A DNA stretch of 64,000 bases from Clostridiales bacterium (GCA_019419955.1 JAHZIB010000002.1:23825-87824); one strand, 5' to 3'. Positions 6,075 to 37,882 are shown, counted from the stretch's first letter. Notes: generated by a model not told the origin, from the sequence alone. Program-made: numbers and translations.

Positions 6075-6231
6075 AAAAGAAACGAGTAGCTTTACTTTTT
6101 CTTTCTAGACGAAGCAAAAATGGTATATTACTAGGAAAACAAATAAAAATTTTTGAGATAGTACGTGTTGTACATCGAAAAAATTTTTATGAAGTTTGAC
6201 AACGTAAGATGCCATTTTTCATTCGTCTTAG
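6075..6231 (+). repeat. Structured intergenic repeat, copy R1 (between accB and fabZ)
   Basis: Outer stem CTAGACGAAGCAAAAATGG (6105-6123) / CCATTTTTCATTCGTCTTAG (6212-6231). Head TTACTAGGAAAA; core GAGATAGTACGTGTTGTACATCGAAA; tail GACAACGTAAGATGCC. The right end overlaps the accB stop codon. Confidence 0.8.
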
Positions 6232-6686
6232 CGAAGTTTGAATAATGGTCTACCAAAATCCACCATCTCCCCATCTCTAACACAAACTTCTACTACTTCT
6301 CCATCAAATTCCGATTCAATCTCATTCATTAACTTCATAGCTTCAACAATACAAAGAATATCACCTTTCTTCACTTTATTTCCTACTTCTACATATGGTT
6401 TTGCATCTGGTGAGCTCTTTGAATAAAATGTACCAACCATTGGAGCTTTTACTACTTTATAACATGGTTCCTCTTGTTTTTCTTCCTTTTGTTGTACTTC
6501 TACTCTATCTGCTGAAGTAACATATTGTACATTCTCTTGCACTTGAGTTGGTATTGTAGAAATACTATTCTTTTTCATTTTTATTTTTGTTCCATCTGGA
6601 AATTCAATACTCAATTCATCAATCTTAGATTCTTGCATATCAGAAATTATTTGTTTAATTTCTTCATATTTCATATTTACTCTCAT
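6228..6686 (-). CDS. accB: Biotin carboxyl carrier protein
   Basis: Biotinyl-lysine motif EAMKLMNEI in a C-terminal lipoyl-like domain. Confidence 0.95.
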   Translation of the reverse strand: MRVNMKYEEIKQIISDMQESKIDELSIEFPDGTKIKMKKNSISTIPTQVQENVQYVTSADRVEVQQKEEKQEEPCYKVVKAPMVGTFYSKSSPDAKPYVEVGNKVKKGDILCIVEAMKLMNEIESEFDGEVVEVCVRDGEMVDFGRPLFKLR

Positions 6687-6730
6687 TCCTTTCTAAAGTA
6701 ATTATTTATTTAATTTTAGACTTAAATACT

Positions 6731-7966
6731 TTACTCATATTTTTTTATTAAAATACTAGCATTATGTCCTCCAAATCCTAACGAATTTGACATAGCAAAT
6801 TTCACATCTATATTTCTGCCTTGATTTGGTACAATGTCTAAATCGCATTCTTCGTCTGGTACTTTATAATTTATTGTAGCAGGCACAAAACCATCTTTAA
6901 CTGATTTAGCACAAACCACTGTTTCAATTCCACCTGCCGCTCCCAATAAATGTCCTGTATTGCTTTTAGTAGAACTTACCATGACTTTCTTGCTTGCTTC
7001 TCCAAGTGCTGTTTTTATTGCAGATGTTTCAAAAGAATCATTTAAATGTGTAGATGTTCCATGAGCATTTATATATGTTATCTCTTCTGGCTTTACATCT
7101 GCTTCTTGCATTGCAAGTTTCATAGCTCTTGCTCCACCTTCTCCTCCTGGAGCTGGCGAAGTTATATGGTATGCATCAGAAGTAGCACCATAGCCAACCA
7201 CTTCAGCATAAATTTTTGCTCCTCTTCTTTTAGCATGTTCTAATTCTTCTAAAACAACAATTCCTGCACCTTCTCCCAAAACAAAACCGCTTCTTTCCTT
7301 ATCAAATGGAATGCTTGCCCTATTTTTATCTGTTGCTTGAGAAAGTGCTTTTATATTAGTAAATCCAGCTACTCCTATTTGTGTTACTGCCGCCTCTGTT
7401 CCTCCTGCTAAAACAACATCTTGATAACCATGTTTTATCATTCTAAAACTCTCTCCAACACAATGTGTACCTGAAGCACATGCAGTAACCATAGAAATAG
7501 ACTCTCCTTTTATGCCTAAATCTATAGCAATATTACCTGATGCCATATTTCCTATAGTCATAGGAATAAACATTGGTGAAACTCTATCTGGCCCTTTTTG
7601 AACTAAGCTACTTATTTCTCTTTCCATTGTTTCCAATCCGCCTATTCCAGTGCCTACAATAACCCCAATTCTCTCCATATCTTCTGTATCTTTATTCAAT
7701 TCACTATCCTTCCAAGCTGCTCTAGCTGCTACTATAGCATATTGAGAAAATAAATCCATCCTTTTTGCACTTCTTTTATCAAAATGCTCCTCAGCATTAT
7801 ATCCTTTTACTTCTGCAGCAAGCTTCACTTTAAAATCTGTTGTATCAAAATGTGTAATTAAATCAATTCCACACTTTCCATTTTTTATTCCTTCCCAAAA
7901 CTCGTCAACATTATTTCCTATTGGAGTAATAGCTCCAAGTCCAGTAATAACTACTCTTCTTTCCAT
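6731..7966 (-). CDS. fabF: 3-oxoacyl-ACP synthase II
   Basis: Active-site ACASGTH, HGTSTHLND and GHLLGAAG motifs. Confidence 0.95.
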   Translation of the reverse strand: MERRVVITGLGAITPIGNNVDEFWEGIKNGKCGIDLITHFDTTDFKVKLAAEVKGYNAEEHFDKRSAKRMDLFSQYAIVAARAAWKDSELNKDTEDMERIGVIVGTGIGGLETMEREISSLVQKGPDRVSPMFIPMTIGNMASGNIAIDLGIKGESISMVTACASGTHCVGESFRMIKHGYQDVVLAGGTEAAVTQIGVAGFTNIKALSQATDKNRASIPFDKERSGFVLGEGAGIVVLEELEHAKRRGAKIYAEVVGYGATSDAYHITSPAPGGEGGARAMKLAMQEADVKPEEITYINAHGTSTHLNDSFETSAIKTALGEASKKVMVSSTKSNTGHLLGAAGGIETVVCAKSVKDGFVPATINYKVPDEECDLDIVPNQGRNIDVKFAMSNSLGFGGHNASILIKKYE

Positions 7967-8000
7967 TTGTGATTTCCTTTCTATTAAATTTTTTATAAAA

Positions 8001-8097
8001 CTAAATTGCTAGGCAAAATTTAGTAAAAAACCGGAAACATACTTGGTGTATGTCGAGAATTTTTTATCTAAATTTTAACAACGCAAGATGCAGTTTG
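8001..8097 (+). repeat. Structured intergenic repeat, copy R2 (between fabG and fabF)
   Basis: Head TTGCTAGGCAAAA; arms TTTAGTAAAAAA / TTTTTTATCTAAA; core CCGGAAACATACTTGGTGTATGTCGAGAA; tail TAACAACGCAAGATGC. Confidence 0.8.
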
Positions 8098-8111
8098 TTC
8101 TTAATTTTAAA

Positions 8112-8852
8112 TTACATTACCATACCACCATCAACATTAATAACTTGCCCTGTAACATATGAACTATCTTCTGATGATAAAAACTTTACTATCCTTGCAA
8201 CCTCTCTTGGTGTTCCCATTCTTTTTAGTGGAATCTGTGCATTTATTCCTTCTTTTACTACATCTGATAAAACATTTGTCATATCTGTGTCGATAAATCC
8301 AGGTGCAATAGCATTTACTAAAATATTTCTACTTGCAACTTCTTTCGCTAAACTTTTTGTAAAGCCAATTATTCCTGCTTTAGATGCAGAATAATTTGTT
8401 TGTCCTGCATTCCCCACAATACCAACAACTGAAGAAAGATTAATTATCCTACCAGACTTTTGTTTTAACATATATGGAATTACATTTCTTGTTACATTAA
8501 ATGTTCCTGTCAAATTCACATCCAATACAGCCTCAAAGTCTTCTTTTTTCATTCTCATTATAAGACCATCCTTTGTAATTCCAGCATTATTAATAAGTAT
8601 ATCTATCTTGCCAAACTTTTCTATTGTTTCTTTTACCATACTTTCGCATTCTTCAAAATTTGCTACATCCGCCTTCACAAATTCACAACGTACACCATTC
8701 TTTTCAATTTCCTTTTTTAAATCATCCATTCCATTATGCTCACTTCTGTAATTTACAGCAATATCAAAACCATTCTCAGCAAGTTCTAATGCAATTTCCT
8801 TTCCTATTCCTCTCGTTGCACCTGTTATTAGTGCCACTCTATTTTCATTCAT
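8112..8852 (-). CDS. fabG: 3-oxoacyl-ACP reductase
   Basis: SDR with TGATRGIG, NNAG and YSASKAG motifs. Confidence 0.95.
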   Translation of the reverse strand: MNENRVALITGATRGIGKEIALELAENGFDIAVNYRSEHNGMDDLKKEIEKNGVRCEFVKADVANFEECESMVKETIEKFGKIDILINNAGITKDGLIMRMKKEDFEAVLDVNLTGTFNVTRNVIPYMLKQKSGRIINLSSVVGIVGNAGQTNYSASKAGIIGFTKSLAKEVASRNILVNAIAPGFIDTDMTNVLSDVVKEGINAQIPLKRMGTPREVARIVKFLSSEDSSYVTGQVINVDGGMVM

Positions 8853-8940
8853 TTTTACTTTCCTTCCTTTCTTAGGGACAAATTTGTTTAAAAACTATTT
8901 AACCCTATTCTCCTTATATACTATTTTTTTGGCAGCATTT

Positions 8941-9879: not shown

Positions 9880-9893
9880 ATTTTTTCTCCTTG

Positions 9894-10820: not shown

Positions 10821-11014
10821 ATGTGTTCCCCTCTGCTAAAAATTCCGTTTGATATTATATCATATATGTAAAATTTTTTCATCTTTTTTTACTAATCGGT
10901 CAGATTTTTTTCAATTCACAGCATACGCGAAAATATATGTTTCGTCCAGCCTTCTCCTAGAGTATTTCGTTAATGCTAACTGTTTCATTTAATACTCACC
11001 TCTGCATACAAAAA

Positions 11015-11050
11015 ATACAGTATGATATTTTTTTATTTTACACACTGTAT
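11015..11050 (-). terminator. Rho-independent terminator downstream of rimO
   Basis: Stem ATACAGTATG / CACACTGTAT, followed on the minus strand by a T-run. Confidence 0.6.
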
Positions 11051-11124
11051 TCTTTCCCCTTCCAAATAGAAATTACTTTCTGCCTATACTTTATCATATA
11101 TTTACATTATCCTCAACAAATTCA

Positions 11125-12549: not shown

Positions 12550-12668
12550 TTCTACTATCCTTTCATATATGTTATATTCTCTTTTCATGTCTATGTATAA
12601 TTGAAAATTATATAGAGACTGACCTTATTATGCCTAAAATTTCAGGTGCACAAAAAATAGAAGTGTCC

Positions 12669-13928
12669 CTAATTCGTAAATTGCTTATTCAGTTTATTTA
12701 ATGCATTTACTAATTTATCATAAGTTTCCTTTGATATTTCGTTTGTATTTTCTAATGAATATGAAGTTACAGTTCCTTTCAAATCAATTAATTCAAACCT
12801 ATTCTGAGCATTCTCTCCATTATCTAACATATATATTGGTGTATAGTTGACTTTATTTAATGTAACTTTTCCATCAATGCCACTTTTCCTTAGCTCAATG
12901 TTTAAAACGAGCTCTGTTCTAGCATCTTCTGATGATAGTGTTGATATATATGTTCCTATTGAATATGCTATAAATACATTGTCTCCATTTTCATTTTTCC
13001 TTATTTCCATTGGCTGTACTACTGATGGATGTGAGCCTAATATCAAGTCTACTCCATTTTCCACTAAAAAGTCTGCCACTTCTTTTTGCTCGCTATTTAC
13101 TTTTTCTGTAATTGCATCTCCCCAATGTATTGCAACGCATATGTATTCTGCTCCATTTTCCTTTGCATATTTTAAGTCTTTTAATACTCTTTCCTCACTA
13201 TACATATTTACACACTTCAATTCATCCTCACTTTTTCCTTGCTCATTATCCATTAAACAAGTATATGTAAGAAATGCAATTTTTGCATTTTTCACTTGCT
13301 TTATTTCCACAGAATTTGCAGTTTCTATCTGGCTTCCTATTACTGAATATCCTAATTCTTTCATATTAGCTTGAGTTTCAGCTAGCCCGTCTACTCCATT
13401 GTCCAAGCTATGATTATGAGCAATTGTAACCAAATTTACCCCTGAATCCTTTACTGCTTGTGCAAATTCAATAGGAGCATTTTTACTGTCATATTCTTTG
13501 CTATCTGTAACTCCTGTTTCCATTGTTCCTAAAACAATATCTGCTTCATTTATAAATCCAGATACTCCTTCAAACATATGTGAAAAATTATATGATTTAG
13601 TTTGCTCATTATATGCATCATCAAGCATCTCCTGACTACACAATATATCACCAACAGCAGACATCTTTATTAAAACATCTGACTCTGATATGTTTTGATT
13701 TGTTTGATTTATATTGTCAGTAATTTGAGAAAAAATTTCTTCTGACTGTTGCCTTATTTCCTCTTGCTGTTTTGCAATCTCTTTTATGTCAAAATACAGT
13801 CTAGTTCCGTTTATTCCAATGCTAATTATAATAATTGCAACCAGAATTCCTACAATTATCAAAAATGTTTTCATATTCAAATATTCTCTAATACTTTTTC
13901 GTCTTGTGTTTCTTCTATTTCTTGCCAT
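12669..13928 (-). CDS. CapA/PgsA-family metallophosphoesterase-like membrane-anchored protein
   Basis: N-terminal TM helix, then a CapA-like domain (MSAVGDIL..., TIAHNHSLDNG, LILGSHPSVVQP). Confidence 0.7.
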   Translation of the reverse strand: MARNRRNTRRKSIREYLNMKTFLIIVGILVAIIIISIGINGTRLYFDIKEIAKQQEEIRQQSEEIFSQITDNINQTNQNISESDVLIKMSAVGDILCSQEMLDDAYNEQTKSYNFSHMFEGVSGFINEADIVLGTMETGVTDSKEYDSKNAPIEFAQAVKDSGVNLVTIAHNHSLDNGVDGLAETQANMKELGYSVIGSQIETANSVEIKQVKNAKIAFLTYTCLMDNEQGKSEDELKCVNMYSEERVLKDLKYAKENGAEYICVAIHWGDAITEKVNSEQKEVADFLVENGVDLILGSHPSVVQPMEIRKNENGDNVFIAYSIGTYISTLSSEDARTELVLNIELRKSGIDGKVTLNKVNYTPIYMLDNGENAQNRFELIDLKGTVTSYSLENTNEISKETYDKLVNALNKLNKQFTN

Positions 13929-13989: not shown

Positions 13990-14120
13990 GGAAAAAAAGT
14001 TGCTTCGCCTTTTGTAGCATTTCTCTTCGCGAATATGCACAGCCCAAGGAAGCTTAAGCTTGTTGCATACGAAAAAATCGTTATAAGTACTGAAATATAA
14101 AACAAAAAACCGATTTTTCC
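13990..14120 (+). repeat. Degenerate repeat copy R8 carrying the GC-rich module
   Basis: CCAAGGAAGCTTAAGCTTGTTGC (14044-14066) is 20/23 identical to 28883-28905 in R6. Followed by a GAAAAAATCG ... CGATTTTTC hairpin containing AGTAC. Confidence 0.5.
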
Positions 14121-14236: not shown

Positions 14237-16651
14237 TTACTTTCTAAGTGTTGCACCTAATTTCTTATCCAATATCTCAATTATTTTTTCCAAACTATCA
14301 TTTATCTCTTCATCCGTCAAAGTCCTATCCATTTTTTCAAATGTTAGAGAATATGCTATGCTCTTTTTGTTCTCTTCAATTCCCTTACCTGTATATACGT
14401 CAAATACTTCTATATTGCTTAAATTTGAACCTGCTGCTTTCTTTATCCATATTCCAATTTGTTCTGATGTTACATCCTTGTCTACTACAACAGCCAAATC
14501 TTTCTTTATACTTGGGAATTTAGAAAATTCTTTGTATTTCATCTTTCCAACTTTTTTATTTAATAATTTATCTAGGTCAATTTCAAATACAAAAACATTA
14601 TCATTCTCTAGTGTAGGATGAACTCTGCCTATTATCCCTACAATATCATTATTTACTGAAATTAATGCAGCTTGCCCTGGGTGTACTTCTTCTGGCATTT
14701 TATCTTCTTTTATTATTAAACTGTATCTGTTTGCATATCCTAAATAGTCAAGCAATTCTTCTACCAAACCTTTTAAAATATAGAAATCTGCCTGCCTCTT
14801 ATCATCAACACCTAAATAAAAATTCCCTGCTATAAGAGCTGCAACTTTGCTATTTTCTCCATATTCTTCGCCTTGTTTATAAAATGTTTTTCCTATTTCA
14901 AATATAGATATATCTTTATTGTTTCTTGACTTGTTATATTCATATACTTTTAAAAGCGAAGGAAGAATACTATGCCTTAAAGTATTTCTTTCTTCAGTCA
15001 TTGGGTCTGATAATCTAACAATTTCGGTATCATCCTTTGTAAAATATTTCGCCTCTTTGTCATTTACTAAAATATATGTTAAAGTCTCATTTAATCCTAA
15101 ATCAACAAGCTTGTTTCTAATTCCTCTATTTACCCTATCATAGTTACCCGCCTTCATAGGCATTTCTGGAAGTTTCCCTATAATGTTATTTACTCCATAA
15201 ATACGTCCCACTTCTTCTATTAAATCCTCTTTAATAGAAATGTCTCCTCTTCTTCTAGGTACTGATACAACAATATTCTCTACATTTTTCATATTCTCTT
15301 CTGTTTCAGTAAAATCACTTTTATTTCCATTTATTAATACATCGAATCCTAGTCTTCTAAATACATCTAATACGTCTTTTTTTAGAATTTCCATTCCTAA
15401 TACATCATTAATTTTTTGAAAAGCAATCTCAATATTTCTGTTTGCTCTGTCAGATTTATCAAATTTAGCTATTCCGCCAACCACTTCTCCTTCTGCATAC
15501 TCTTCTAAAAGTTTACATGCTCTTTCTATTGCCATATATGTTCTGTTTGGGTCAAGTCCTTTTTCAAATCTTGTACTAGCTTCACTTCTTAATATTTGTT
15601 TCGATGTTTTTCTAATTTTTACCCCATCAAATATTGCAGATTCAATCAAAACATTTTTTGTATTATCAGTAATTTCTGTGTCTAAACCTCCCATAACACC
15701 GGCCAACCCAATTGCTCTTTCTCCATCAGAAATAACTATATCCTCATCAGACAAAGTCCTCTCTTTTCCATCTAAAGTAAATAACCTTTCTCCTTGGCTT
15801 GCCATTCTCACTTCAATCTTCCCTTTTAATGTATCAGCATCATAAAAGTGAAGTGGCTGGCCTGTCTCTAGCATCACATAATTGCTAATATCAACCACAT
15901 TATTAATAGGTCTAATTCCAGATGCAATAAGTCTACTTTTTATAAATGTTGGACTTTCCTTAATCTTTATATTTTTTACCTTTTTTGCCAAGAAAATTGA
16001 ACAATTCTCTGTATTAACTTCAATTTTAAAATCATTACTTATATCTTCTTCGTTTTCTCCATGTGTCAAATCAATATCCCTTACTCTTTTATCATAAATT
16101 GCCCCAATTTCATAAGCCATTCCAAGAATGCTAAGCAAATCTCCCCTGTTAGCAGTTAAATCAAAATCAATTACCTCGTCATCCATCCCCATGTATTTTA
16201 TTGGGTCTTCGCCAACTGGTGCATCTAAAGGCAATTCATGTATTCCAGTTTTATCAATTTCATCAGCATACTTATGCTCTAATCCCAACTCTAACATAGA
16301 ACAAAGCATCCCATTTGACTCTTGCCCTCTAATAATCCCTTTTTTTATTATTCCTCCTGGTAGCTCAGCACCATCTAGAGCAACAATAACCTTTAATCCT
16401 TTTCTAACATTTGGTGCTCCACAAACAATATTTAAAATTTCATTTCTCACATTCACTTTACATATGTGTAAATGGTCAGAGTCTGGATGTTCCTCACACT
16501 CTATCACTTCTCCAATAACCAATTTAGTAGCATTTAATAGCTTTCCCGCTTCATCATACTCATTACCTACGTTTGTCATGTCTTCTGCAAGTTTTTTAAC
16601 ATCTACATCTATATCCACATAGTCTTTCACAAAATTTGTACTCAATTTCAT
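14237..16651 (-). CDS. pheT: Phenylalanine-tRNA ligase beta subunit
   Basis: 804 aa; N-terminal tRNA-binding domain, B3/4 and B5 domains, FDX-ACB C-terminus. Lies downstream of pheS. Confidence 0.95.
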   Translation of the reverse strand: MKLSTNFVKDYVDIDVDVKKLAEDMTNVGNEYDEAGKLLNATKLVIGEVIECEEHPDSDHLHICKVNVRNEILNIVCGAPNVRKGLKVIVALDGAELPGGIIKKGIIRGQESNGMLCSMLELGLEHKYADEIDKTGIHELPLDAPVGEDPIKYMGMDDEVIDFDLTANRGDLLSILGMAYEIGAIYDKRVRDIDLTHGENEEDISNDFKIEVNTENCSIFLAKKVKNIKIKESPTFIKSRLIASGIRPINNVVDISNYVMLETGQPLHFYDADTLKGKIEVRMASQGERLFTLDGKERTLSDEDIVISDGERAIGLAGVMGGLDTEITDNTKNVLIESAIFDGVKIRKTSKQILRSEASTRFEKGLDPNRTYMAIERACKLLEEYAEGEVVGGIAKFDKSDRANRNIEIAFQKINDVLGMEILKKDVLDVFRRLGFDVLINGNKSDFTETEENMKNVENIVVSVPRRRGDISIKEDLIEEVGRIYGVNNIIGKLPEMPMKAGNYDRVNRGIRNKLVDLGLNETLTYILVNDKEAKYFTKDDTEIVRLSDPMTEERNTLRHSILPSLLKVYEYNKSRNNKDISIFEIGKTFYKQGEEYGENSKVAALIAGNFYLGVDDKRQADFYILKGLVEELLDYLGYANRYSLIIKEDKMPEEVHPGQAALISVNNDIVGIIGRVHPTLENDNVFVFEIDLDKLLNKKVGKMKYKEFSKFPSIKKDLAVVVDKDVTSEQIGIWIKKAAGSNLSNIEVFDVYTGKGIEENKKSIAYSLTFEKMDRTLTDEEINDSLEKIIEILDKKLGATLRK

Positions 16652-16689: not shown

Positions 16690-16805
16690 GGAAAAGAATT
16701 AAATTTTGAGCAGTCAAAACGAGTCTGAAATTTATGAGGCGTACTTTTTGTACGTTGATTAAATTTCAAATGAAGTTTGTTAGCCACCAATTGTAATTCT
16801 TTTTA
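16690..16805 (+). repeat. Structured intergenic repeat, copy R3 (between pheS and pheT)
   Basis: Core GAAATTTATGAGGCGTACTTTTTGTACGTTGATTAAATTTCAAATGAAGTTTG, near-identical to copy R7 at 37802-37853. Confidence 0.8.
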
Positions 16806-16988: not shown

Positions 16989-18026
16989 TTATCTATCTAA
17001 CCTATCAAACTGACTTAAAAACCTTATATCATTTTGATATAGCAACCTAATATCTGTAATTCCATACTTGAACATTGCCAATCTGTCCAAACCAGTTCCG
17101 AAAGCAAAACCACCGTAAACCTCTGGGTCATATCCATTCATTTCAAGGACATTTGGATGTACCATTCCAGAACCCAAAACTTCAATCCAGCCAGTTTGCT
17201 TACATAGATTGCAACCCTTTCCTCCACATTTAAAACAGCTTACATCAACCTCATAAGATGGCTCTGTAAATGGGAAATAACTTGGTCTAAAACGAAGTTC
17301 TAGATTCTCTCCAAGCATTTTTCTAACAAACACTTCTAATGTTCCCTTTAAATCTGCTAGTGAAATATTTTTATCTATCAAAAGTCCCTCAACCTGACTA
17401 AATTGATGAGAATGTGTTGCATCATCATCTCTCCTATATGTTTTTCCTGGGCAAATAATTCTAATAGGAGTTTTTTCCTTGTTATCCATCATTGCTCTTG
17501 CTTGAACTGCAGATGTTTGCGTTCTTAAAAGATATTCAGATGTAATATAGAAACTATCTTGCATATCCCTTGCTGGATGACCTTTTGGAAGATTTAACCT
17601 CTCAAAACAATATTCATCTGTTTCAAGCTCTGGACCTGTTACAACATCATACCCCATAGAAACAAATAAATCTTCTACTTCTTCTATAATTCTATTTAGA
17701 GGATGTTTGCTTCCCCTTTTTACTTTTGTGCTAGGAAGAGTAATATCTATTCTTTCATCTTTTAATTTTCTTTCAAGTTCTATCTTCTCAAACTCGTTCT
17801 CTCTAGTCTTAATCAAATGCTCAATCTCGTTCCTTGCCTCATTAACCTTACTACCAATAACTGGTCTCTCCTCTGCACTTAAACTACCCATTCCTCTTAA
17901 GATGGCAGTAAGTTCCCCTTTCTTGCCTAAATATTTAACTCTTAACTCTTCCAATTCTTTTGCATTAATAGCTTTTTCAATTTGTTCAACAGCTATCTCT
18001 CTAATTTTGCTAATCTGCTCTTGCAT
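16989..18026 (-). CDS. pheS: Phenylalanine-tRNA ligase alpha subunit
   Basis: Class II aaRS motifs ([36 protein letters not shown]). Confidence 0.95.
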
Positions 18027-18137: not shown

Positions 18138-18390
18138 TCAAAAAAAGCTAATCGTCCTATTTATATAGGACGATTAGCTTTAATATATCGTGGTACCACC
18201 TAATTTTATTAATTTTAATAATTAACCTCTTTTGCTGTAACGGGCTTCCCGTCTTTTCCTACTATAATTTCAAAAAAGAACCTCAAAAGTGAAATTTCAG
18301 TTTAATAAATATTAGTAAACTTCCAGCCTAGATTTACCTCTCTTAAAATATTTTTTCATTAAACTTACTTTGCTTTTTCAACGGTTTTAA
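18138..18390 (-). promoter_or_regulatory. T-box leader (Phe specifier) with terminator, upstream of pheS
   Basis: Minus strand shows AGAGAGG and GGCUGGAAG stem-I elements. GAAAUUUCAC contains a UUC Phe codon (18291-18293). T-box sequence AUUAGGUGGUACCACG lies at 18189-18200. Terminator AAGCTAATCGTCC/GGACGATTAGCTT (18145-18180) is followed by a U-run. Confidence 0.8.
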
Positions 18391-23339: not shown

Positions 23340-23590
23340 ACTTAAGTTAAAAAAGCAAGCAGTAATTAAAATACAAAGTTTAACTTATTTACTATTAGAG
23401 TAAAAAGAAACGAGTATTGCTAGGCGAACAAATAAAAATTTTTTATATGAATTTTAGTCGTTTCTATATTATACTTAGGCTAAAAAGAAGCAAGCAGTAC
23501 TAGGCAAAATTAAATTAAAATGCGGAAACGTACTTTGTGTACGTTGAGCAATTTTCATTTAATTTTAACAACGTAATGCGCCGCTTATTT
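23340..23590 (+). repeat. Cluster of three repeat units (R4-0 truncated, R4a core-deleted, R4b complete) directly downstream of the era stop
   Basis: R4b: AGTACTAGGCAAAATTAAATTAAAATGCGGAAACGTACTTTGTGTACGTTGAGCAATTTTCATTTAATTTTAACAACGTAATGCG. R4a: AGAAACGAGTATTGCTAGGCGAACAAATAAAAATTTTTT...TCGTTTCT. The cluster ends one nt before the era stop at 23591. Confidence 0.8.
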
Positions 23591-24484
23591 TTAGTCCAAG
23601 CGGAAAGATTTGATAAACTTATCACTATTAATCCAATCCTCCCTAACCTTAACCCATATTTTAAGATTTATTTTAATATTTAACATCTTTTCTAAATCCT
23701 GCCTTGCAAAAGTTCCTATTCTCTTTAGCATACTTCCATTTTTCCCTATAATTATGCCTTTATGTGAAGCTCTTAAGCAATAAATAGTTGCCTCTATATT
23801 GTAGATTGGTTCATTTCCTATTGTCTTTCTTTTTTTCATTTTTTCAACTTGTACTAGAATTCCATGAGGAACTTCATCATCCAAAAGCTTCAATGCTTTC
23901 TCTCTTATTGTTTCTTCTACTAACTGTCTTGTAGTTTGATCTGTATATTCTTCTATATCATAATATGCAGGTCCTTCATTTAGGTTCTTCTCTATTTCAT
24001 CTAATATAGCATCTAAGTTTATATTTTTTACTGTTGATACTGGTATTATACTCGCAAAATCATATTCATCTTTGTATAATTCTATTAATTTTGCAACTTT
24101 TGCTTTATCAACTAAATCTACCTTATTTATTACCAAAATAGTTTTCTTATTAGCCTGTTTTATTTTTTCTAAAATTAGCTTGTCCCCTTTTCCAATATCA
24201 TCTGATGTAGCTTCCACTACAAAAACTACAACATCAACATCTCTTGATACTTCAAAAGCATTATCTACCATTACGTTTCCTAATTTCGACTTTGGTTTAT
24301 GAATTCCAGGAGTATCTATGAAAATTATTTGAGAATTAGGTCTATTTACTATTGCACGTATTACTGTTCTTGTAGTCTGAGGTTTATTTGCAATTGCGGC
24401 AACCTTCTCTCCAACTAAGCTATTAATTATACTAGATTTTCCTACATTTGTTCTACCAAGAATTGATACAAACCCTGATTTCAT
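23591..24484 (-). CDS. era: GTPase Era
   Basis: G1 GRTNVGKSS, DTPG, NKVD, C-terminal KH domain. Confidence 0.95.
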   Translation of the reverse strand: MKSGFVSILGRTNVGKSSIINSLVGEKVAAIANKPQTTRTVIRAIVNRPNSQIIFIDTPGIHKPKSKLGNVMVDNAFEVSRDVDVVVFVVEATSDDIGKGDKLILEKIKQANKKTILVINKVDLVDKAKVAKLIELYKDEYDFASIIPVSTVKNINLDAILDEIEKNLNEGPAYYDIEEYTDQTTRQLVEETIREKALKLLDDEVPHGILVQVEKMKKRKTIGNEPIYNIEATIYCLRASHKGIIIGKNGSMLKRIGTFARQDLEKMLNIKINLKIWVKVREDWINSDKFIKSFRLD

Positions 24485-24823: not shown

Positions 24824-26563
24824 TTATATCCTATACTCTTTCATTGGAGTATAATATGTATGCAAAAGTTCATGTGCCTTGTGTTCTCCTGGTTTGCCAA
24901 GATATTCCTTATAAATCTGTTGTAATACTGGGTTTTCATGAGATTTCCTTATTGTGCTTTTTTCATCTATAGAATACATAGCTTCTGCTCTTTTTCCTCT
25001 TACATCCAATGTCATTCTCGTTTTAGAGTTTTTAATTGGCTGTCCTCCCCCCATTATACATCCACCAGGACATGCCATAACTTCAACAAAACTATAATCA
25101 GCTGTGCCGTTCTTTATTTCTTCCATAACCTTCCTAGCATTGCTTAACCCATGTGCAATTGCCACTTTTACTTCTTTTTCTCCAATTTGAATAGTTGCTT
25201 TTTTTAGTCCTTTTTCCCCTCTAACATCTTCAAACTCAATTTTTTCTAAGTTTTCTCCTGTTATTAACTCATAGGCTGTGCGAAGTGCCGCTTCCATAAC
25301 TCCTCCAGTAACGCCAAATATTGCTGCTGCACCTGTTGCTTCACCCATTGGACTATCAAAAGTATCATCTTCTAATTTTTCAAACTCAATATTTGCCTGT
25401 TTAATCATTCTAGCAAGCTCACGTGTAGTTATTACAGCATCCACATTCCAAAGTTCGTTATTTTTCATTTCTTCTCTTTGTCTTTCATATTTTTTTGCAA
25501 TACATGGCATAACTGAAACTACATATATTTTTTTTGGATCTATGTTATTTTTTTCAGCGAAATAAGATTTTATAATTGCTCCAAACATTTCATGTGGTGA
25601 TTTACAGCTAGATAAATGTGGTAAATTTTCTGGATATTCCATCTCTGCAAATCTTACCCACCCTGGGCAACATGATGTTGCCATCGGTAAATTATCATTC
25701 TCTTTAAATCTTTTTACAAACTCTGCCGCCTCTTCCATAATTGTAAAATCCGCTCCTGTATTTGTGTCAAAGACTTTATCAAAGCCTAAATGCTTTAGTG
25801 CTGAAATCATTTTTCCTGTAACATTTGTGCCTATTTCCATTCCAAATTCTTCGCCAAGTGCTACCCTTACGGATGGAGCTGTTTGAACCACCACATATGT
25901 ATCTGGGTCTTTTAATTTTGCCCATACATCATTAATATTCTCTTTTTCGTGAAGAGCACCTGTTGGACATGACTCAATACATTGCCCACAAAATGTACAA
26001 TTTACATCATTCAAACTGTGGTCATATGTTGTAGAAATACAAGATTCAAAACCTCTATTAATACAATCTATAGCTCCGATATTTTGCATGTTTTTACAAG
26101 TTGCAACACATCTTCTGCACAAAATACACTTATTGAAATCTCTAACGATTGCAGGAGATTTATCATCTATTTTATGCTCTGTTCTCTCTCCTTTAAACTC
26201 TATATCTAAAACATTAAATTTTATTGCTAAATCTTGGAGTTCACAATTACCAGAACGTGTACAAGTTAAACAATCCTTTGAATGATTAGATATAATTAAA
26301 TCCAATATTGCATGTCTTGCCTCCAAAACATTTCTTGTATGAGTGTGAACTATCATACCTTCCTCAACCTTTTGTATACAAGAAGTAGCAAATCCACGAC
26401 GCCCCTCTACTTCAACAATACACATCCTGCAATCTCCGACTTCATTGATATCCTTTAAGAAACACAATGTTGGAATATCTATTCCAGCTTGTTTTGCTGC
26501 ATCTAATATGGTTGTACCCTCTGGTACACAAACTTTTTTATCATCAATTTTTAAATTAACCAT
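24824..26563 (-). CDS. hydA: [FeFe] hydrogenase catalytic subunit (HydA, NuoG-like N-terminus)
   Basis: H-cluster motifs TSCCPGW, MPCIAKKYE, EVMACPGGCIMGGGQP. N-terminal 2Fe-2S and 4Fe-4S cysteine clusters. Confidence 0.95.
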   Translation of the reverse strand: MVNLKIDDKKVCVPEGTTILDAAKQAGIDIPTLCFLKDINEVGDCRMCIVEVEGRRGFATSCIQKVEEGMIVHTHTRNVLEARHAILDLIISNHSKDCLTCTRSGNCELQDLAIKFNVLDIEFKGERTEHKIDDKSPAIVRDFNKCILCRRCVATCKNMQNIGAIDCINRGFESCISTTYDHSLNDVNCTFCGQCIESCPTGALHEKENINDVWAKLKDPDTYVVVQTAPSVRVALGEEFGMEIGTNVTGKMISALKHLGFDKVFDTNTGADFTIMEEAAEFVKRFKENDNLPMATSCCPGWVRFAEMEYPENLPHLSSCKSPHEMFGAIIKSYFAEKNNIDPKKIYVVSVMPCIAKKYERQREEMKNNELWNVDAVITTRELARMIKQANIEFEKLEDDTFDSPMGEATGAAAIFGVTGGVMEAALRTAYELITGENLEKIEFEDVRGEKGLKKATIQIGEKEVKVAIAHGLSNARKVMEEIKNGTADYSFVEVMACPGGCIMGGGQPIKNSKTRMTLDVRGKRAEAMYSIDEKSTIRKSHENPVLQQIYKEYLGKPGEHKAHELLHTYYTPMKEYRI

Positions 26564-26660
26564 TATTTCCTCCTTTTTTCTTTTTGGGGATAGATCTCAC
26601 AACGAATTTTTTTTCGTTTTTTGGACACATCTTATCTCTATTATATTAATTTTCAAAAAA

Positions 26661-26750
26661 CAATTAATGCTAGGAAAAATTTAGTAAAAAATCGCAGGCG
26701 TACTTTGTGTACATCGAGGATTTTTTATCTAAATTTGGGCAACGCAATAC
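26661..26750 (+). repeat. Structured intergenic repeat, copy R5a (hydB-hydA spacer)
   Basis: ATGCTAGGAAAAATTTAGTAAAAAATCGCAGGCGTACTTTGTGTACATCGAGGATTTTTTATCTAAATTTGGGCAACGCAATACG. Confidence 0.8.
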
Positions 26751-26781
26751 GAAGCCTATTTTGAAAATTCCCAGGCTTAAT

Positions 26782-26890
26782 CAAAAGCGAGTATTACTAG
26801 GAAAGCTAGCTAAAAATTTTGAGATAGTACATAGGTACATCGAAAAATTTTTTGCGACGCTTGACAACGTAAGACGATGCTTTTCATTAA
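26782..26890 (+). repeat. Structured intergenic repeat, copy R5b (tandem to R5a; ends 3 nt before the hydB stop)
   Basis: AAAAGCGAGTATTACTAGGAAAG...AAAAATTTTGAGATAGTACATAGGTACATCGAAAAATTTTTT...TTGACAACGTAAGACGATGCTTTT. The core is nearly identical to R1. Confidence 0.8.
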
Positions 26891-26892
26891 GC

Positions 26893-28749
26893 CTACCCAA
26901 TTGCATGGAACGGACACGTACGTACACAAGTCGTACACTTAATACACTTATCCTGATTTATGTGTCTCTTTTCTCTTCCTTCTCCTTCAATTGCATTTAC
27001 AGGACAATTTTTTTGGCACAATCCACAAGCTTTGCACTTTTCCTCATCAATCTCTATTCTGGATAATGCTTTACACTCCATTGCTTTACATTCTTTTTCA
27101 ATAGCATGCTGTCTAAACTCTTCCCTAAAATATTTCATTGTACTAATTACAGGATTTGGAGCACTTTGTCCTAATCCACATACACTAGCTTTTTTTACAT
27201 TGGCTGCCAGTTTTTCTAATCTATATATATCATATTCGTCTCCTTCTCCATTGCATAATTTTTCTAGAATTTCGAGCATTCTTTTGGTTCCAATTCTGCA
27301 TGGTGTACATTTTCCGCAACTTTCACTTACTGTGAATTGTAGATAGAATTTTGCTAGACATACCATGCACTTTGTATCATCCATTACTATTAGTCCACCA
27401 GACCCCATCATTGAACCTATTTCTTTTAAAGATTCGTAATCAATCGGTGTATCCAAATGTTCTTTTGGTATACATCCTCCTGATGGTCCACCTGTTTGAG
27501 CTGCTTTAAACTCTCTGCCATTTGGTATTCCTCCACCTATATCAAACACTATTTCTCTTAAAGTTGTACCCATTGGCACTTCTACCAATCCTACATTATT
27601 TACATTGCCACCTAATGCAAATACTTTTGTACCTTTTGAGGTCTCGGTTCCTATACTAGAATACCATTCTGGCCCTTTTAATATTATTTGAGTAATATTT
27701 GCAAATGTCTCAACATTATTAATTAATGTAGGACATTCCCATAAACCTTTTTGAGCTGGATATGGTGGCTTTACTCTAGGTTGGCCTCTCTTTCCTTCTA
27801 TAGATTCTAATAGTGCTGTTTCTTCCCCACAAACAAATGCTCCTGCGCCTAATCTTATTTCAATGTCAAAACTGAAATTTGTTCCAAATATATTTTGTCC
27901 AAGTATTCCATATTTTCTTGCCTGATCAATTGCAATTTGAAGCCTTCGAACAGCAATTGGATATTCAGCTCTAACATATATATACCCTTTTTGAGCTCCT
28001 ATGGCATATCCTGCAATCTCCATTGCTTCTAACACTGCATGTGGGTCGCCTTCTAAAATACTTCTATCCATAAATGCTCCTGGGTCGCCTTCATCTGCAT
28101 TACAAACCACATATTTTTTATCTCCAACCGCTTCCTTAGTACTCTTCCATTTTTTTCCTGTTGGAAAACCAGCTCCACCTCTGCCTCTTAATCCAGCTTT
28201 CTCTATAGTTTCAATGACCTCATCTGAGCTCATTTCAAAAAGTACTCTACCTAAGGCTCTATATCCATCAAATGCTATATATTCATCTATGTTCTCTGGA
28301 TTAATCACACCACAGTTTTTAAGAGCAATTCTCTTTTGTTTTTTATAAAAGTTTAAGTCGTCAAGCTTAATTACTTTTTTTCCATCTACATCTTTGCAGA
28401 GTAATCTCTCAACCACCTTTCCACCCATTATGTGTGACTCAATTATTTCTTTGCAATCATCAGGTGTAACCATTGCATAAAAAGTATCTTCTGGTCTTAT
28501 AATCACAATTGGACCTTTAGCACATAAACCAAAACAGCCTGTTTTAATGACTCTTACGTTTTTTAGTTCTTTTTCCTTTATTAACTTATTAAAATTCTCT
28601 AGAATTTGTGGTGATTTTGACGATGTACAACCAGTTCCATGACAAACCAATATATGCTTTTCTCTAGTATCTGCTTCCGTATTTTTCCTCAAATCTAATT
28701 CTACTTTTTTTTCAACTCTTATTTTATTCAATTCCTCTATAGTTTTCAT
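26893..28749 (-). CDS. hydB: NADH-binding hydrogenase subunit, NuoF-like (HydB)
   Basis: GRGGAGFPTGKKW FMN/NADH motif, SLBB domain, N-terminal thioredoxin-like 2Fe-2S, two C-terminal 4Fe-4S ferredoxin motifs. Confidence 0.93.
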   Translation of the reverse strand: MKTIEELNKIRVEKKVELDLRKNTEADTREKHILVCHGTGCTSSKSPQILENFNKLIKEKELKNVRVIKTGCFGLCAKGPIVIIRPEDTFYAMVTPDDCKEIIESHIMGGKVVERLLCKDVDGKKVIKLDDLNFYKKQKRIALKNCGVINPENIDEYIAFDGYRALGRVLFEMSSDEVIETIEKAGLRGRGGAGFPTGKKWKSTKEAVGDKKYVVCNADEGDPGAFMDRSILEGDPHAVLEAMEIAGYAIGAQKGYIYVRAEYPIAVRRLQIAIDQARKYGILGQNIFGTNFSFDIEIRLGAGAFVCGEETALLESIEGKRGQPRVKPPYPAQKGLWECPTLINNVETFANITQIILKGPEWYSSIGTETSKGTKVFALGGNVNNVGLVEVPMGTTLREIVFDIGGGIPNGREFKAAQTGGPSGGCIPKEHLDTPIDYESLKEIGSMMGSGGLIVMDDTKCMVCLAKFYLQFTVSESCGKCTPCRIGTKRMLEILEKLCNGEGDEYDIYRLEKLAANVKKASVCGLGQSAPNPVISTMKYFREEFRQHAIEKECKAMECKALSRIEIDEEKCKACGLCQKNCPVNAIEGEGREKRHINQDKCIKCTTCVRTCPFHAIG

Positions 28750-28826: not shown

Positions 28827-29016
28827 AAAAATAATTAGTATATTGCTAGACGAAATCCATGTCCTCGCTTTGCTCGGACGGTCCAAGGTAGCCTAACCTT
28901 GTTGCTCCGGAAATTTCTAACGAATTTTTCTATGTAATAAAAAAGCGCAGGCATGCTTTTTGCACATTGAGTATTTTTATCTAAATTTCAACAAAACAAG
29001 ATGCTGATTATTTTTC
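28827..29016 (+). repeat. Structured intergenic repeat, copy R6, with GC-rich insert (hydC-hydB spacer)
   Basis: Outer stem AAAATAATTAGT / GCTGATTATTTT; head TTGCTAGACGAAA. GC-rich module at 28861-28915. Core GCGCAGGCATGCTTTTTGCACATTGAGTA; tail TTCAACAAAACAAGATGCTG. Overlaps the hydC stop at 29008-29010. Confidence 0.75.
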
Positions 29017-29484
29017 AAGTTTGTCTAAAATCTCATCAAGTTTCTTCACAGTTGCATGACCATAAACTTCTCCATTAACTGTAAATACTGGCGCTATTCC
29101 ACATGCTCCAACACATCTTGTTGTATCTATTGAAAATTTGCCATCACTACTCGTTTGCCCTTCTTCTAATTTTAACCTTTCCTTTAATCTATCCAATATT
29201 GCTTGTGAACCTTTAACAAAGCATGCTGTTCCTAAGCAGACTGAAATATTGTATTTTCCCTTTGGTTCTAATGTAAATCTTGCATAAAATGTAATAACCC
29301 CATAAATCTCCGCCATAGGAATATTCAAATACTTCGATATTTCCATTTGTGCAATTTTAGGAATATATCCGTACTTTTCTTGTACTTCATTTAATATCTG
29401 TATTAAATTATCTTTTTCCTGTTTATATGGTTTCATAATTTCATTTACTTCTTGTATTATTCTTTTTTCAACATACTCACACAT
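29008..29484 (-). CDS. hydC: NuoE-like 2Fe-2S hydrogenase subunit (HydC)
   Basis: Thioredoxin-like ferredoxin cysteines CLGTAC...CVGACGIAP. Confidence 0.9.
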   Translation of the reverse strand: MCEYVEKRIIQEVNEIMKPYKQEKDNLIQILNEVQEKYGYIPKIAQMEISKYLNIPMAEIYGVITFYARFTLEPKGKYNISVCLGTACFVKGSQAILDRLKERLKLEEGQTSSDGKFSIDTTRCVGACGIAPVFTVNGEVYGHATVKKLDEILDKLEK

Positions 29485-30298: not shown

Positions 30299-30300
30299 TT

Positions 30301-32701: not shown

Positions 32702-32781
32702 AAGCCCCCCATTTGAGCAATTACATTTTTTGCCTCAGCTTGCCCAAGAATTACACATTCAAAGGCAAACTTATTATTATT

Positions 32782-34023: not shown

Positions 34024-34063
34024 ATCATTCCTTTCTCGTCATTAGTGTACTAATCATTTAGAC

Positions 34064-35245: not shown

Positions 35246-35330
35246 TTCCAGCTACCCCTTTCTCTAGCTTTTGCTTTAGTCTTTTTCTCTTCTATAATTG
35301 GTTAAATAACTATATTATTACCTTCCACAA

Positions 35331-35618
35331 TCAATCTTCACTCTCTTCAGTGACACTTTCAAAATCAATGCTATCAATTCTACCAGTAACCAGTAAATCA
35401 TCAGTCGTCATTTCTTCCAACTTCAAATTAAATCCATTAATATTTAATATACCTATATAAGTATTCACTCTGACAAAATAATCCTGATATTCTAGAATTC
35501 CTCTATAATTTTCTATAAGCATTCGTTCAAACCCTGTAATAGTTATCTTGGGGTTGTTGGTACTCAATTCAACGGGTATTTCTAAAATTTCCTCTATTTT
35601 CCTTGCTTTTCTTCTCAT
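35331..35618 (-). CDS. yqfC: Sporulation protein YqfC
   Basis: 95 aa, YabP/YqfC family (ITITGFERMLIENYRGILEYQDYFVRVNT). Confidence 0.85.
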   Translation of the reverse strand: MRRKARKIEEILEIPVELSTNNPKITITGFERMLIENYRGILEYQDYFVRVNTYIGILNINGFNLKLEEMTTDDLLVTGRIDSIDFESVTEESED

Positions 35619-35644
35619 CTTTTCTCCTTCCTTGAATATTAGGA

Positions 35645-36051
35645 TTAATTATCTCCTTCAAATTCATCCAAACTCTTAAACTCATATCCCATATTCTTTA
35701 TTTCCTTTATACAATAATCTAAAATATTGCTATTATCCTTTGAAGTACTATGAAGTAACATAACTTCTCCATTATGAACATTATCTATAATTTTCTTTTT
35801 TCCATATTCTTCTCTTCCTTGTTTATCCTCATCCCAATCATCATATGCAAATGACCACATCACAGTTTTATATCCAAGTGTATTTGTATATTCAATTGTT
35901 CTCTCACTATATTCTCCTTTTGGTGGTCTTATATATTTCATTTCATACCCAAATTTATCATACATTGCAGTATGAAGTTCCATTACATCTTTTTTTATTT
36001 CTTCATTTGAACATTCTGGCATCGGTATGTGATTTGTTGTATGATTTCCTA
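35645..36051 (-). CDS. pdaA: pdaA 3' segment (delta-lactam-biosynthetic de-N-acetylase, C-terminal ~135 codons)
   Basis: The frame stays open upstream of the track ATG (KKLGNHTTNHIPMPECS...). Matches the PdaA C-terminal half (IRPPKGEYSE, VMWSFAYDDW, MLLHSTSKDN). Confidence 0.85.
36038..36051. repeat. Left copy of the 14-bp direct repeat TGTATGATTTCCTA (element/pdaA junction)
   Basis: Identical to 43500-43513; encodes GNHT on the minus strand. Confidence 0.9.
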
Positions 36052-36111
36052 ATTTCTTAATGTCTAATTTTTAGCGGTTTCTAACCGCTTCTATTATTTT
36101 TTTATATGCTC

Positions 36112-37738
36112 TTATTTCGTCCTAACGTTAGGATAATTTTGAAATGTAAATTTAATTGTTATATTTTTTTCTTTGTCAAATTCAATTTTTTCAATTAACT
36201 TTTCTAATATCATTTTATTTTGCTTTTCCATTTTTAAGAACTCAGTTGTAATTTGTTTTATTTCTTTAAAATCTATTTTTGGTAATTTTTTATTGTTTTC
36301 TTCAAGTTGTGTTTCTGTCTCTTTTATTTGTTTCAAAGTTTTATTTCTTTCTTTTTGCTTTTTTTCATAAATAATTTTAAAATCTTCTATTTGTATAATT
36401 TTATTTATTTTGTCTTGATATATTTCTTCAATTGTATTTTCTATATTTTTTAATTTTTGTTTTAATTCTTGTAACTTTGTTTGCAATAAATTATTTTTGC
36501 TTTTTGCTTCTTTTTCTGCTTGTTCATAAATCTGTTTTATTTCTTTTTCAGAGAAATTAATTTTTTGTATTTCTTCCTTTATTTTTGCATTTACCACTTC
36601 TTCTATTAAATTTGCTGAAATTTGTTTATTATCACATAATGAACTATAATTATTTCTTTTAGAGCAAATAAAATATGTAGCTCTCCAAACTGTTCCATTT
36701 TTTCTTTTTTCTTCTCTACATCTTAAAGTTGCTTTATTTCCACATTCTCCACAATACACGAATCCTTTTAGTGGGTGATCATATTTCCTATCTCTAGTTT
36801 TGGTATATCCATTTAATTTATCTTGTGCTTTATTCCAAGTTTCAATATCTATTATTGGCTCATGCATATTTTCTAGGACAATATATTCTTCTTTTTTTGT
36901 GCATCTTACTTTTGCTATTTTATGGCTTACTTTTTGAAATTTTCTTCCTACTACACTTCCGAAGATAAACTTCATTTCTTAAAATTTTTCCTATTTGTGC
37001 CCTTAGCCATACATATTTTCCATTTGGATTTACACTTTTTCTCTTCATATACGTAGGTATTTTTAAATATATTGCTGGTGGCTCTATCTCTCTTCTATTT
37101 AATTCATCTGCTATTTTTATTGTTGACATACCTTTATTTACATACATATCAAATATTTCTTTTACAACTTGTGAACTATATTCATCAGGTACTAAATGAT
37201 TTTTTATTTCTATATCTTTTTTATATCCATATGGTGGAATTCCTGCTTGATATTCTCCTTTTTCGATTTTTCTTTGTTTTACACTTTTAATTTTGTTTGA
37301 TATATCTTGTGCATAATAGTCATTAAAACTTAGCTTAAATGTTAAAAATTGTAAACCATCTGGCTTTATTGTATCTACATTATCTCCAATTGCTATGTAC
37401 CTTATATTATTCGCAGGTAAATATCTTTCTAAATAATATCCAGTGTCTATATGATCTCTACCAAATCTTGATAAATCTTTTGTTATAATACAATCTATTT
37501 TTTCATCTTCTATGTCTTTTAACATTTTCTGAAATCCTGGTCTGTTAAAATTTGTACCTGTATAACCGTCATCAACATATTCTCCTGCTTCTATTAGTTC
37601 TTCATGACCTAATATATAATTATCAATAATGTCCCTTTGATTTTCTACACTTTCGCTTTCTCGGTCATCTCCATCTTCACGAGATAACCTTATGTATTTT
37701 GCCACTCTTATATTTCTATAACCATTTACTCTATTCAA
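36112..37738 (-). pseudogene. Large serine recombinase interrupted by a one-nt frameshift (near 36958-36964)
   Basis: N-terminal ORF (TTG start, RBS GAGAGGTG) has the resolvase domain (YIRLSREDGD..., DCIITKDLSRFGRD). It ends out of frame at ...ILRNEVYL. The second ORF continues GSVVGRKFQKV..., with a zinc ribbon (CGECG...) and coiled coil. The junction reads TAT CTT C GGA AGT. Confidence 0.8.
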
Positions 37739-37761
37739 CTTAATTCACCTCTCTTTTTTTG

Positions 37762-37882
37762 GTTCAAATAAGAATTGCTATTTTACAAGGCAAACGAATT
37801 TGAAATCTATGAGGCGTACTTTTGTACGTTGATTAGATTTCAAATGAAGTTTAACGAAGTAAAATACAATTGTCATTTGAAC
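37762..37882 (+). repeat. Structured repeat, copy R7, inside the mobile element upstream of the recombinase gene
   Basis: Outer stem GTTCAAATAAGAATTG / CAATTGTCATTTGAAC; stem CTATTTTAC / GTAAAATAC; core GAAATCTATGAGGCGTACTTTTGTACGTTGATTAGATTTC. Confidence 0.85.

Follow-up and report, generated by a model that had tools for sequence, protein, structure and literature searches.

What are the long hairpins that recur between the genes of a Clostridiales bacterium, and what keeps them there? The question is raised by a 64,000-nucleotide stretch of its genome (GCA_019419955.1 JAHZIB010000002.1:23825-87824; hereafter the window, with positions counted from its first letter), in which an original prediction had recognized a family of structured intergenic repeats and had taken its conserved loops and covarying helices as a sign of selection on structure, an interpretation that the present analysis partly supports. 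The explanation we favor, with confidence about evenly balanced, is a non-coding hairpin element of ~123 bp that resembles a transposable element of the miniature inverted-repeat type (MITE), is mobile now or was so once, and belongs to a very old, phylum-spanning family. It builds on the family itself, the covariation of its stems, its fixed boundaries, a T-N-A target-site duplication in relatives, gain and loss at one orthologous site, and placement relative to genes. The spread across phyla, the fixed element length and the adjacency to stop codons go beyond what had been predicted.

First, does the family exist? With filters off, a covariation model of 54 aligned members, drawn partly from the window and partly from public genomes, returns eight significant matches across the window. 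Each is on the + strand, and the eight span 6.1-37.9 kb, a density of 8 copies within 32 kb; the best reverse-strand or unrelated matches in the window have E ~1 or worse. The strict pattern GTACRTYGA-N15-30-RACAACGYAA matches the window three times where no match is expected, and de novo repeat detection recovers the hairpin family independently. The predicted architecture is borne out, with its CTAGG head, variable arms, GTAC-loop-GTAC core, GA...GA flanks and ACAACGYAAG tail. The window is ~30% G+C with nearly all of its long open reading frames (ORFs) on the minus strand, and the copies lie antisense to the surrounding operons, as had been noticed. They are distributed as follows.

Copy 1, 6100..6236, + strand: full hairpin, model match 6115-6221 at 104.5 bits; neighbors accB (6228-6686, minus) and fabZ (5562-5984, minus), the 3' arm overlapping the accB stop codon at 6228-6230.
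Copy 2, 7985..8108, + strand: model match 7993-8100 at 83.6 bits; neighbors fabG (8112-8852, minus) and fabF (6731-7966, minus), whose intercistronic spacer of 145 nt is occupied by the copy over ~123 nt.
Copy 3, 16692..16804, + strand: degenerate, with both head and tail motifs eroded; model match 16700-16796 at 37.4 bits, E 2e-5; neighbors pheS (16989-18026) and pheT (14237-16651), a T-box-controlled operon.
Copy 4, region 23340..23598, + strand: full hairpin at ~23476-23598, model match 23484-23590 at 93.6 bits, up against the stop codon of era at 23591; two fragments of the 5' end lie before it, at ~23345-23375 and 23404-23450.
Copy 5a, 26646..26769, + strand: first of a tandem pair, model match 26654-26761 at 79 bits; neighbors, shared with copy 5b, a NuoF-like hydrogenase subunit gene (26893-28749) and hydA (24824-26563).
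Copy 5b, 26773..26895, + strand: second of the tandem pair, model match 26781-26886 at 105.8 bits; its outer stem AGGCTTAAT/ATTAAGCCT overlaps the TAG stop of the NuoF-like gene (26893-26895).
Copy 6, 28827..29021, + strand: interrupted, with its head at 28843-28855, ~85 nt of a second repeat inserted at 28856-28940, and core and tail running to 29013; the model match 28914-29013, 27.2 bits, is the 3' part; it sits between the NuoE-like and NuoF-like subunit genes and reaches the stop of the former at 29008.
Copy 7, 37762..37883, + strand: model match 37770-37875 at 59.6 bits, a variant whose head reads CAAGG and whose tail reads AACGAAG; the gene at 36920-37738 starts 32 nt away.

Eight copies plus fragments thus replace the predicted count of at least ten full copies. 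What had been read as three units at 23340-23590 is one full copy and two 5' fragments, of which 23404-23450 scores only 10.9 bits, and the supposed degenerate member at 13990-14120 has no model match. The latter shares a 23-mer, CCAAGGWAGCYTAASCTTGTTGC, with the insertion in copy 6 (14044-14066 and 28883-28905, two matches where none is expected) and is therefore a member of a second small repeat, one copy of which is nested in hairpin copy 6 while the other, at 13990-14120, lies between an ORF at 12669-13928 and pheT.

Second, what structure is being kept? Each copy is one long imperfect palindrome, built in layers. An outer stem of ~8 bp, whose sequence is copy-specific yet almost always paired, encloses a semi-conserved stem; then follow a conserved asymmetric internal loop that sets 5' CUAGG(C/A) opposite 3' (A/G)ACAACG, two freely covarying arms, a conserved tandem G-A/A-G that separates the inner arm from the terminal stem, and, innermost, a 7-bp stem with a nearly invariant GUAC/GUAC top and a loop of 4-9 variable bases. 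RNAalifold, given the 54-member alignment, returns a single long hairpin with 21 pairs in the modelled core, 14 of them with compensatory changes. The predicted covariation of the helices proved to lie far beyond chance in two sequence sets: A2, which holds 83 sequences from the window and from genome loci, and A3, which holds 72 distinct metagenome sequences, mostly of 45-70% G+C, collected apart from A2 by means of another search pattern and then fitted to that same model. Paired cells amount to 96.0% in A2 against 76.3% in shuffles, with compensatory change at 19 of the 21 pairs, and to 88.1% in A3 against 73.1%, with compensatory change at 13 of 21; slid controls give 29-38% and 22-36%, respectively, and in both sets the observed pairing was reached in none of 500 shuffles. 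The unpaired segments described earlier are conserved as well, the internal loops being kept and asymmetric. Two loop positions covary and never form a Watson-Crick pair (C...A in 45 and A...G in 36 of 82 ungapped rows, the remaining row being the single exception); a head with U18 is accompanied by C105 in the tail, and one with A18 by A105. In the flanks, pairing of position -i with +i stands at 68-93% for i = 1-8 and is at background level at i >=10. Since the pairing runs exactly 8 nt past the model ends on both sides, the unit is ~123 nt; most complete hairpins, whatever the lineage, span 120-130 nt. In some members, a further small hairpin is inserted at fixed structural points (L325 at 5005-5061, L373, L316, L359/L425 and L362); one such insertion has 57 nt and separates the 3' strand of P2 from the AACAACG tail. 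These additions recall the optional stems of RNA families.

Is the hairpin, then, an RNA in its own right? A structured non-coding RNA (ncRNA) family, in which the + strand hairpin is transcribed and functions, for example by binding protein, by catalysis or as a cis-antisense RNA that terminates where the neighboring gene has its 3' end, with mobility as a secondary trait, is favored by unpaired nucleotides that stay conserved across phyla while the helices covary, by the retention of the tandem G-A/A-G, by the two loop positions that covary without Watson-Crick pairing, and by hairpin insertions at fixed points, as in many RNA families. Copies in ribosomal-protein operons, moreover, lie in sense just upstream of rplB, rplC and rplF. 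Against it, most copies are antisense to the only obvious transcription, no conserved promoter is found upstream, where the 5' flank is merely T-rich, the density in the window is very high, and a related subfamily is flanked by target-site duplications. A search of all 4227 Rfam families likewise gave no match to any copy, either at the gathering score or at E<=10 (low-GC copies) and E<=5 (high-GC copies), in keeping with the earlier failure to assign the repeat to a named family. Taken with the strand evidence considered below, an ncRNA family of this kind appears unlikely.

The two strands of the element are not equivalent. The + strand, which is that of the model, exceeds its reverse complement in folding stability in 75 of 82 copies under RNA parameters (-7.8 kcal/mol on average) and is favored in 79 of 82 with DNA parameters; for copy 1, the RNA fold reaches -43.3 kcal/mol (z -7.0) and its reverse complement -34.8 kcal/mol. 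G-U outnumbers A-C by 68:14 in A2 and by 171:26 in A3, and nearly all of the G-U cases fall at three pairs, 11-115, 48-74 and 49-72, at which the invariant G48 and U72 tolerate G-U partners (19-72 cases) and A-C occurs at most once at each of those pairs. Outside these positions, G-U (10 in A2, 22 in A3) and A-C (12 and 26) are both rare, at ~1% of cells. The strand asymmetry stems from fixed features, and the original reading of G-U pairs as a mark of plus-sense RNA has its basis in no more than three fixed positions; elsewhere, G-U is no commoner than A-C. Because G-U is as rare as A-C outside the fixed positions, the variable helices follow an essentially Watson-Crick-only rule, which is atypical for RNA and fits a constraint on DNA, or on both strands, better; the invariant G48 and U72 with their wobble partners, together with the asymmetric loops, mark one strand as special. 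For an ncRNA family, these observations cut both ways: the near absence of A-C at the wobble positions and the greater stability of the model strand argue for it, and the scarcity of G-U elsewhere argues against it. Sequence by itself cannot separate RNA from single-stranded DNA as the recognized form.

A single-stranded DNA hairpin read by a structure-specific enzyme, either a Y1/HUH transposase as in IS200/IS605 and REP/RAYT systems or an integrase as for attC, would account for Watson-Crick-only covariation with a few fixed G-T wobbles, for asymmetric unpaired bases that mark one strand, and for a DNA-parameter fold that favors that same strand. Variable termini at a constant distance from the core, and a position directly after stop codons that recalls attC, point the same way. 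A direct TNA duplication, however, is not expected for IS200/IS605 or RAYT elements; no RAYT, TnpA or integrase recurs near the copies among 790 clustered flanking ORFs; the alignments contain neither the R''/R' boxes of attC nor the GTAG head of REPs; and the copies have housekeeping operons rather than cassettes as neighbors. Copies of opposite orientation can lie a few hundred bases apart (L050 and L062), which makes orientation independent of the replication strand. On balance, we consider such an element improbable.

Third, how far does the family extend? A pattern scan of one genome per species gave at least 118 loci, about half of those listed being true members. Among the matches listed, the carriers include many gut "uncultured Clostridia" metagenome-assembled genomes (MAGs), Clostridium sp. 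CAG:508, an Erysipelotrichaceae MAG, Geobacter and other Geobacteraceae, a deltaproteobacterial MAG, bins labelled Phascolarctobacterium or Nitrospira, a Candidatus Uhrbacteria MAG and a Proteiniphilum bin. The fetched loci hold 76-83 copies, and many loci carry several in both orientations, with five in 8 kb in Clostridium sp. CAG:508. A more GC-specific pattern gave at least 120 metagenome loci from soil, peat, sediment and gut, nearly all of those listed being recognizable by eye from the family architecture; in the first 100 of them, 76 matches are confirmed by the model. A BLAST search of plasmids found one copy, in pGLOV01 of the isolate Trichlorobacter lovleyi SZ, where it is unannotated and lies between, and antisense to, a DUF2149 gene and cobN; no copy resembling those of the window turned up in the plasmid collection. 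A phage origin was considered and rejected: two scans of the whole IMG/VR collection gave a single true member (L295), the other matches looking like chance by inspection and regular-expression filtering rather than by model search. No description of the family was found in the literature searched, and the supplementary lists of multicopy sequences in Geobacter genome papers do not contain the motif strings.

Fourth, does the element move? One subfamily, of Geobacter type, consists of dozens of near-identical copies at unrelated sites (ATACCGAGTTGCAATCAAAATGAGTA-CTAGGCGGC...GCCAACAACGTAATCGTTTGATTGCGACTTGGTAT), with the ends TACCGAGTTGCAATC...GATTGCGACTYGGTA. Its copies are flanked on both sides by T-N-A, and N is identical on the two sides in 28 of 31 cases against 7.8 expected (binomial p ~3e-14), with TGA, TAA, TCA and TTA used about equally. 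These flanks are a 3-bp target-site duplication, and the combination of terminal inverted repeats with a 3-bp TNA duplication in this subfamily makes the family MITE-like. The copies are also small, non-coding and numerous (~123 bp, in intergenic gaps between long ORFs), and terminal inverted repeats are inherent in an element that is itself one inverted repeat. Gain and loss can be followed at one orthologous site: the rplW-rplB spacer is occupied by three different subfamilies in L050/L089, in L037 and in L077, and is empty in L094, L110 and L057. Within the window, a tandem pair, 5' fragments and a nested insertion are further traits of mobile repeats. The original prediction had named the ends of a known insertion sequence (IS) or MITE family with target-site duplications, along with the lack of any strand-specific transcript or processing signal, as a finding that would refute its reading; the duplication is there, in a close subfamily, and a match to a known IS or MITE is not.

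Two side observations may be added. The reverse complement of the Geobacter-type 3' arm (e.g., L324 at ~715-740, minus strand) reads AATCAAACGATTA, which fits the consensus of IHF, WATCAANNNNTTR; the match is not conserved in other subfamilies. In L340 at 1-96 (minus strand), ~140 nt from a hairpin copy, an Rfam match to STnc490, an antisense RNA of IS200, stays below threshold (39.6 bits, with the gathering score at 56); a neighboring IS200 end may be present, though this is probably coincidence.

Fifth, where do the copies sit relative to genes? Judged by crude ORF calls, both neighboring genes run antisense to the copy in 54 of 82 cases. The stop codon of a convergent ORF begins <=15 nt from the model 3' end in 52 of 83 copies, most often at +7 or +8, where it overlaps or touches the last paired base, and the high-GC set shows the same peak; a co-directional stop next to the 5' end is found in only 3 of 83. 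Twelve copies are sense to both neighbors, most of them 18-36 nt before a start codon, with room only for a ribosome-binding site, and the genes behind them include rplB (conserved in eight MAGs), rplC, rplF and topA. From the two placements together, it follows that the 3', or "tail", arm is in both the one turned toward the nearest ORF. Where operons are tight, the room from the stop codon to the next ribosome-binding site is filled by the element. The stop-codon edge may be the only site at which an insertion is tolerated, which would not account for the orientation bias.

Several ribosomal-protein loci illustrate these placements. In L062, rplF is bracketed by copies at 6690-6796 (+) and 7381-7485 (-) with tails inward, one in sense before the rplF ribosome-binding site and the other antisense on its stop; the two are mutually complementary in the mRNA and could pair across the whole rplF cistron. 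After rplF, the element is kept in four species (L089, L062, L115 and L052), with changes in the outer and inner stems compensated, which points to long retention. In addition, a conserved stretch of ~80 nt (ATCGGGAAAGAACCCGG...ATATCTG...GCGGAGCAGGAAAAA.ATCCGTAAAT) precedes the sense copy upstream of rplB in the rplW-rplB spacer of eight MAGs (L030, L037, L050, L057, L077, L089, L094 and L110), lying in L094, for example, about 150-60 nt upstream of the hairpin copy; it could be an undescribed ribosomal-protein leader, and has no Rfam match.

What would such hairpins do in a transcript? The window copies sit inside the fab/acc, pheS-pheT and hydrogenase operons and must be co-transcribed with them, as the reverse complement. 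Intrinsic, possibly bidirectional, transcription terminators might be suspected from stable hairpins just after stop codons, and are highly improbable here: the copies sit between genes that need co-transcription (the fab genes, and pheS and pheT behind one T-box), neither strand has a T-run after the stem, and a terminator scan shows no excess. The T-rich flank upstream on the model strand becomes an A-rich one after the hairpin in mRNA, and the missing T-run on either strand means that the elements are not terminators. A normal terminator does exist elsewhere in the window: at ~1618-1660, a perfect inverted repeat GGGACACTATTT...AAATAGTGTCCC between convergent genes looks like an ordinary bidirectional terminator, and the genome therefore uses conventional terminators at other sites.

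The same absence of a U-tract in either direction, with both strands folding well, would suit a host punctuation mark, in which the hairpin, mostly as the reverse complement, would act in polycistronic mRNA by fixing where it is processed or by shielding the ends of cistrons, and in which the element would be retained by selection for this role and have lost its mobility in this lineage. Copies inside fab/acc, pheST, hydrogenase and ribosomal-protein operons, hairpins that start no more than ~2 nt from a stop codon or just before a ribosome-binding site, and retention at orthologous sites across species with compensated stems, as after rplF, are in its favor. The asymmetry nevertheless favors the strand that is not the mRNA for most copies, the same core occurs in distant phyla in other contexts, and for the role itself there is only the analogy with REP, ERIC and Correia elements (PMC3184786). 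We regard punctuation as a full explanation as quite improbable.

We return to a MITE-like element and to what weighs against it. Low-GC (Clostridial) copies, those of the window included, have no detectable target-site duplication, and the signal is weak in the other high-GC subfamilies. Terminal sequences are conserved only inside subfamilies (e.g., TACCGAG...CTCGGTA), and those of the low-GC copies are not conserved, the reverse of a classical MITE. Neither in the fetched loci nor in pGLOV01 was an autonomous parent element or a transposase found; all-versus-all clustering of the 790 flanking ORFs finds only abundant two-component and ABC families recurring beside copies; and no left and right ends lying kilobases apart were found. 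One candidate parent, the IS5-like ISGlo4 of pGLOV01, has unrelated ends. Nor does TNA targeting explain why Clostridial copies adjoin stop codons: the adjacent stops are TAA 38, TAG 12 and TGA 2 against a background of 263:92:62, and since TAG (12 of 52) is at its background level beside the element and no duplication is seen there, such targeting cannot be the cause. The strong tendency of the tail arm to face the ORF is unexplained as well. Finally, conserved loops, non-Watson-Crick covariation and optional hairpins look more like a functional RNA than a passive transposon.

If the element is nonetheless MITE-like, a plausible course of events would be the following. A trans-encoded transposase would move it by staggered 3-bp cuts, and the conserved asymmetric core would be recognized on a folded single strand, either DNA during transposition or RNA. 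Recognition of this kind would account for stems that drift in sequence but keep their pairing, and for loops that keep their identity. Some lineages would still be amplifying the element, with TNA duplications, and in the present Clostridial genome the copies would be old and fixed in the fab/acc, pheST and hydrogenase operons, where, co-transcribed as the reverse complement, they may be tolerated or used as intercistronic mRNA hairpins that punctuate processing or stability. Any cellular function is something that we infer. A bolder proposal, possible though doubtful, is that the core (the CUAGG/ACAACG loop, the tandem G-A and the GUAC hairpin) is an undescribed functional nucleic-acid module present in at least four phyla, either a new class of structured RNA that binds protein or is catalytic, or the recognition fold of a new structure-specific transposition system that duplicates 3 bp, and that it marks cistron boundaries with its 3' arm toward the ORF.

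One neighboring feature of the window concerns copy 3. Upstream of pheS-pheT is a T-box leader (18163-18390, minus strand), whose 120 bits exceed the Rfam gathering score, and copy 3 lies between the two genes under its control.

If the MITE-like explanation is true, the family would be among the most widely distributed small bacterial repeats, with carriers as far apart as gut Clostridia, Geobacter and bins labelled Nitrospira or Uhrbacteria (candidate phyla radiation). It would be an unusual mix, in which a transposon signature is combined with a conserved asymmetric core, variable ends, a fixed length and placement at stop codons with one arm toward the ORF. It makes testable how hairpin elements are recognized and moved, whether they punctuate operon mRNAs, and why one orientation survives. 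On a practical level, such elements make intergenic regions longer, and searches of MAGs for ncRNAs, terminators or riboswitches could be led astray by them.

How does the element compare with known systems? Among RNA motifs, visual comparison with the consensus sequences of the hammerhead, the hairpin ribozyme, the kink-turn, the GNRA tetraloop receptor and the sarcin-ricin motif found none of their features family-wide; resemblances are confined to single copies, such as GAAAC...GUC in copy 2 and GUAUAUUAC in copy 1. A kink-turn is further excluded by the tandem G-A/A-G between P3 and P4, which comes with a 0- or 1-nt bulge and not with a 3-nt bulge.

Among palindromic DNA repeats, REP, BIME and REPIN sequences are similar in being extragenic palindromes at the 3' ends of genes that keep their pairing and are thought to be read as single-stranded hairpins. 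REPs, however, are 20-40 nt long (REPINs are symmetric doublets), have a GTAG head, lack target-site duplications and have a RAYT nearby, none of which is seen in the present element; a single asymmetric hairpin of 123 nt without a GTAG/GTGG head or a recurrent neighboring transposase is not a REP or REPIN. Derivation from IS200/IS605 (PATE) was rejected too, the element being one continuous hairpin with a direct TNA repeat of free N and not two subterminal hairpins inserted 3' of a fixed tetranucleotide without a target-site duplication. Integron attC sites share its preference for structure over sequence, the asymmetric unpaired bases that define the active strand, and the position on or after a stop codon. 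Membership fails on the missing R''/R' boxes (RYYYAAC/GTTRRRY) and integrase, the housekeeping neighbors, the occurrence in both orientations and the duplication in one subfamily.

The likeness is greater to transposon-derived hairpins. The present element shows most of the features of MITEs; its parent IS is missing, and a target-site duplication is seen only in related subfamilies. ERIC/IRU (~127 bp), Correia/NEMIS and RUP elements are likewise non-coding imperfect palindromes of ~100-160 bp in many copies, found at transcribed intergenic or intra-operon locations, with short duplications flanking active copies (PMC3184786). Each of these families is known from a single genus or family, and their termini are conserved and their duplications TA. 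The present element differs from them in its variable termini, its asymmetric core shared across phyla, its 3-bp TNA duplication, its fixed length and its 3' arm toward the ORF boundary. With Tourist-like and IS5-family elements (the IS1031 group, PIF-Harbinger), its recently amplified subfamily has the TNA duplication in common, which is the rule in the IS1031-type group of IS5 as classified in ISfinder; its ends, however, are TACC...GGTA and not GAG..., and no matching transposase or IS ends were found. In Geobacter uraniireducens, the Chunjie MITE is described as 178-235 bp long with 21-bp inverted repeats and 9-bp direct repeats (PMC3184786), whereas the present element has ~125 bp and 3-bp repeats; the two are alike in that Chunjie, too, is a MITE of the Geobacteraceae that inserts in operons without breaking them (PMC3184786).

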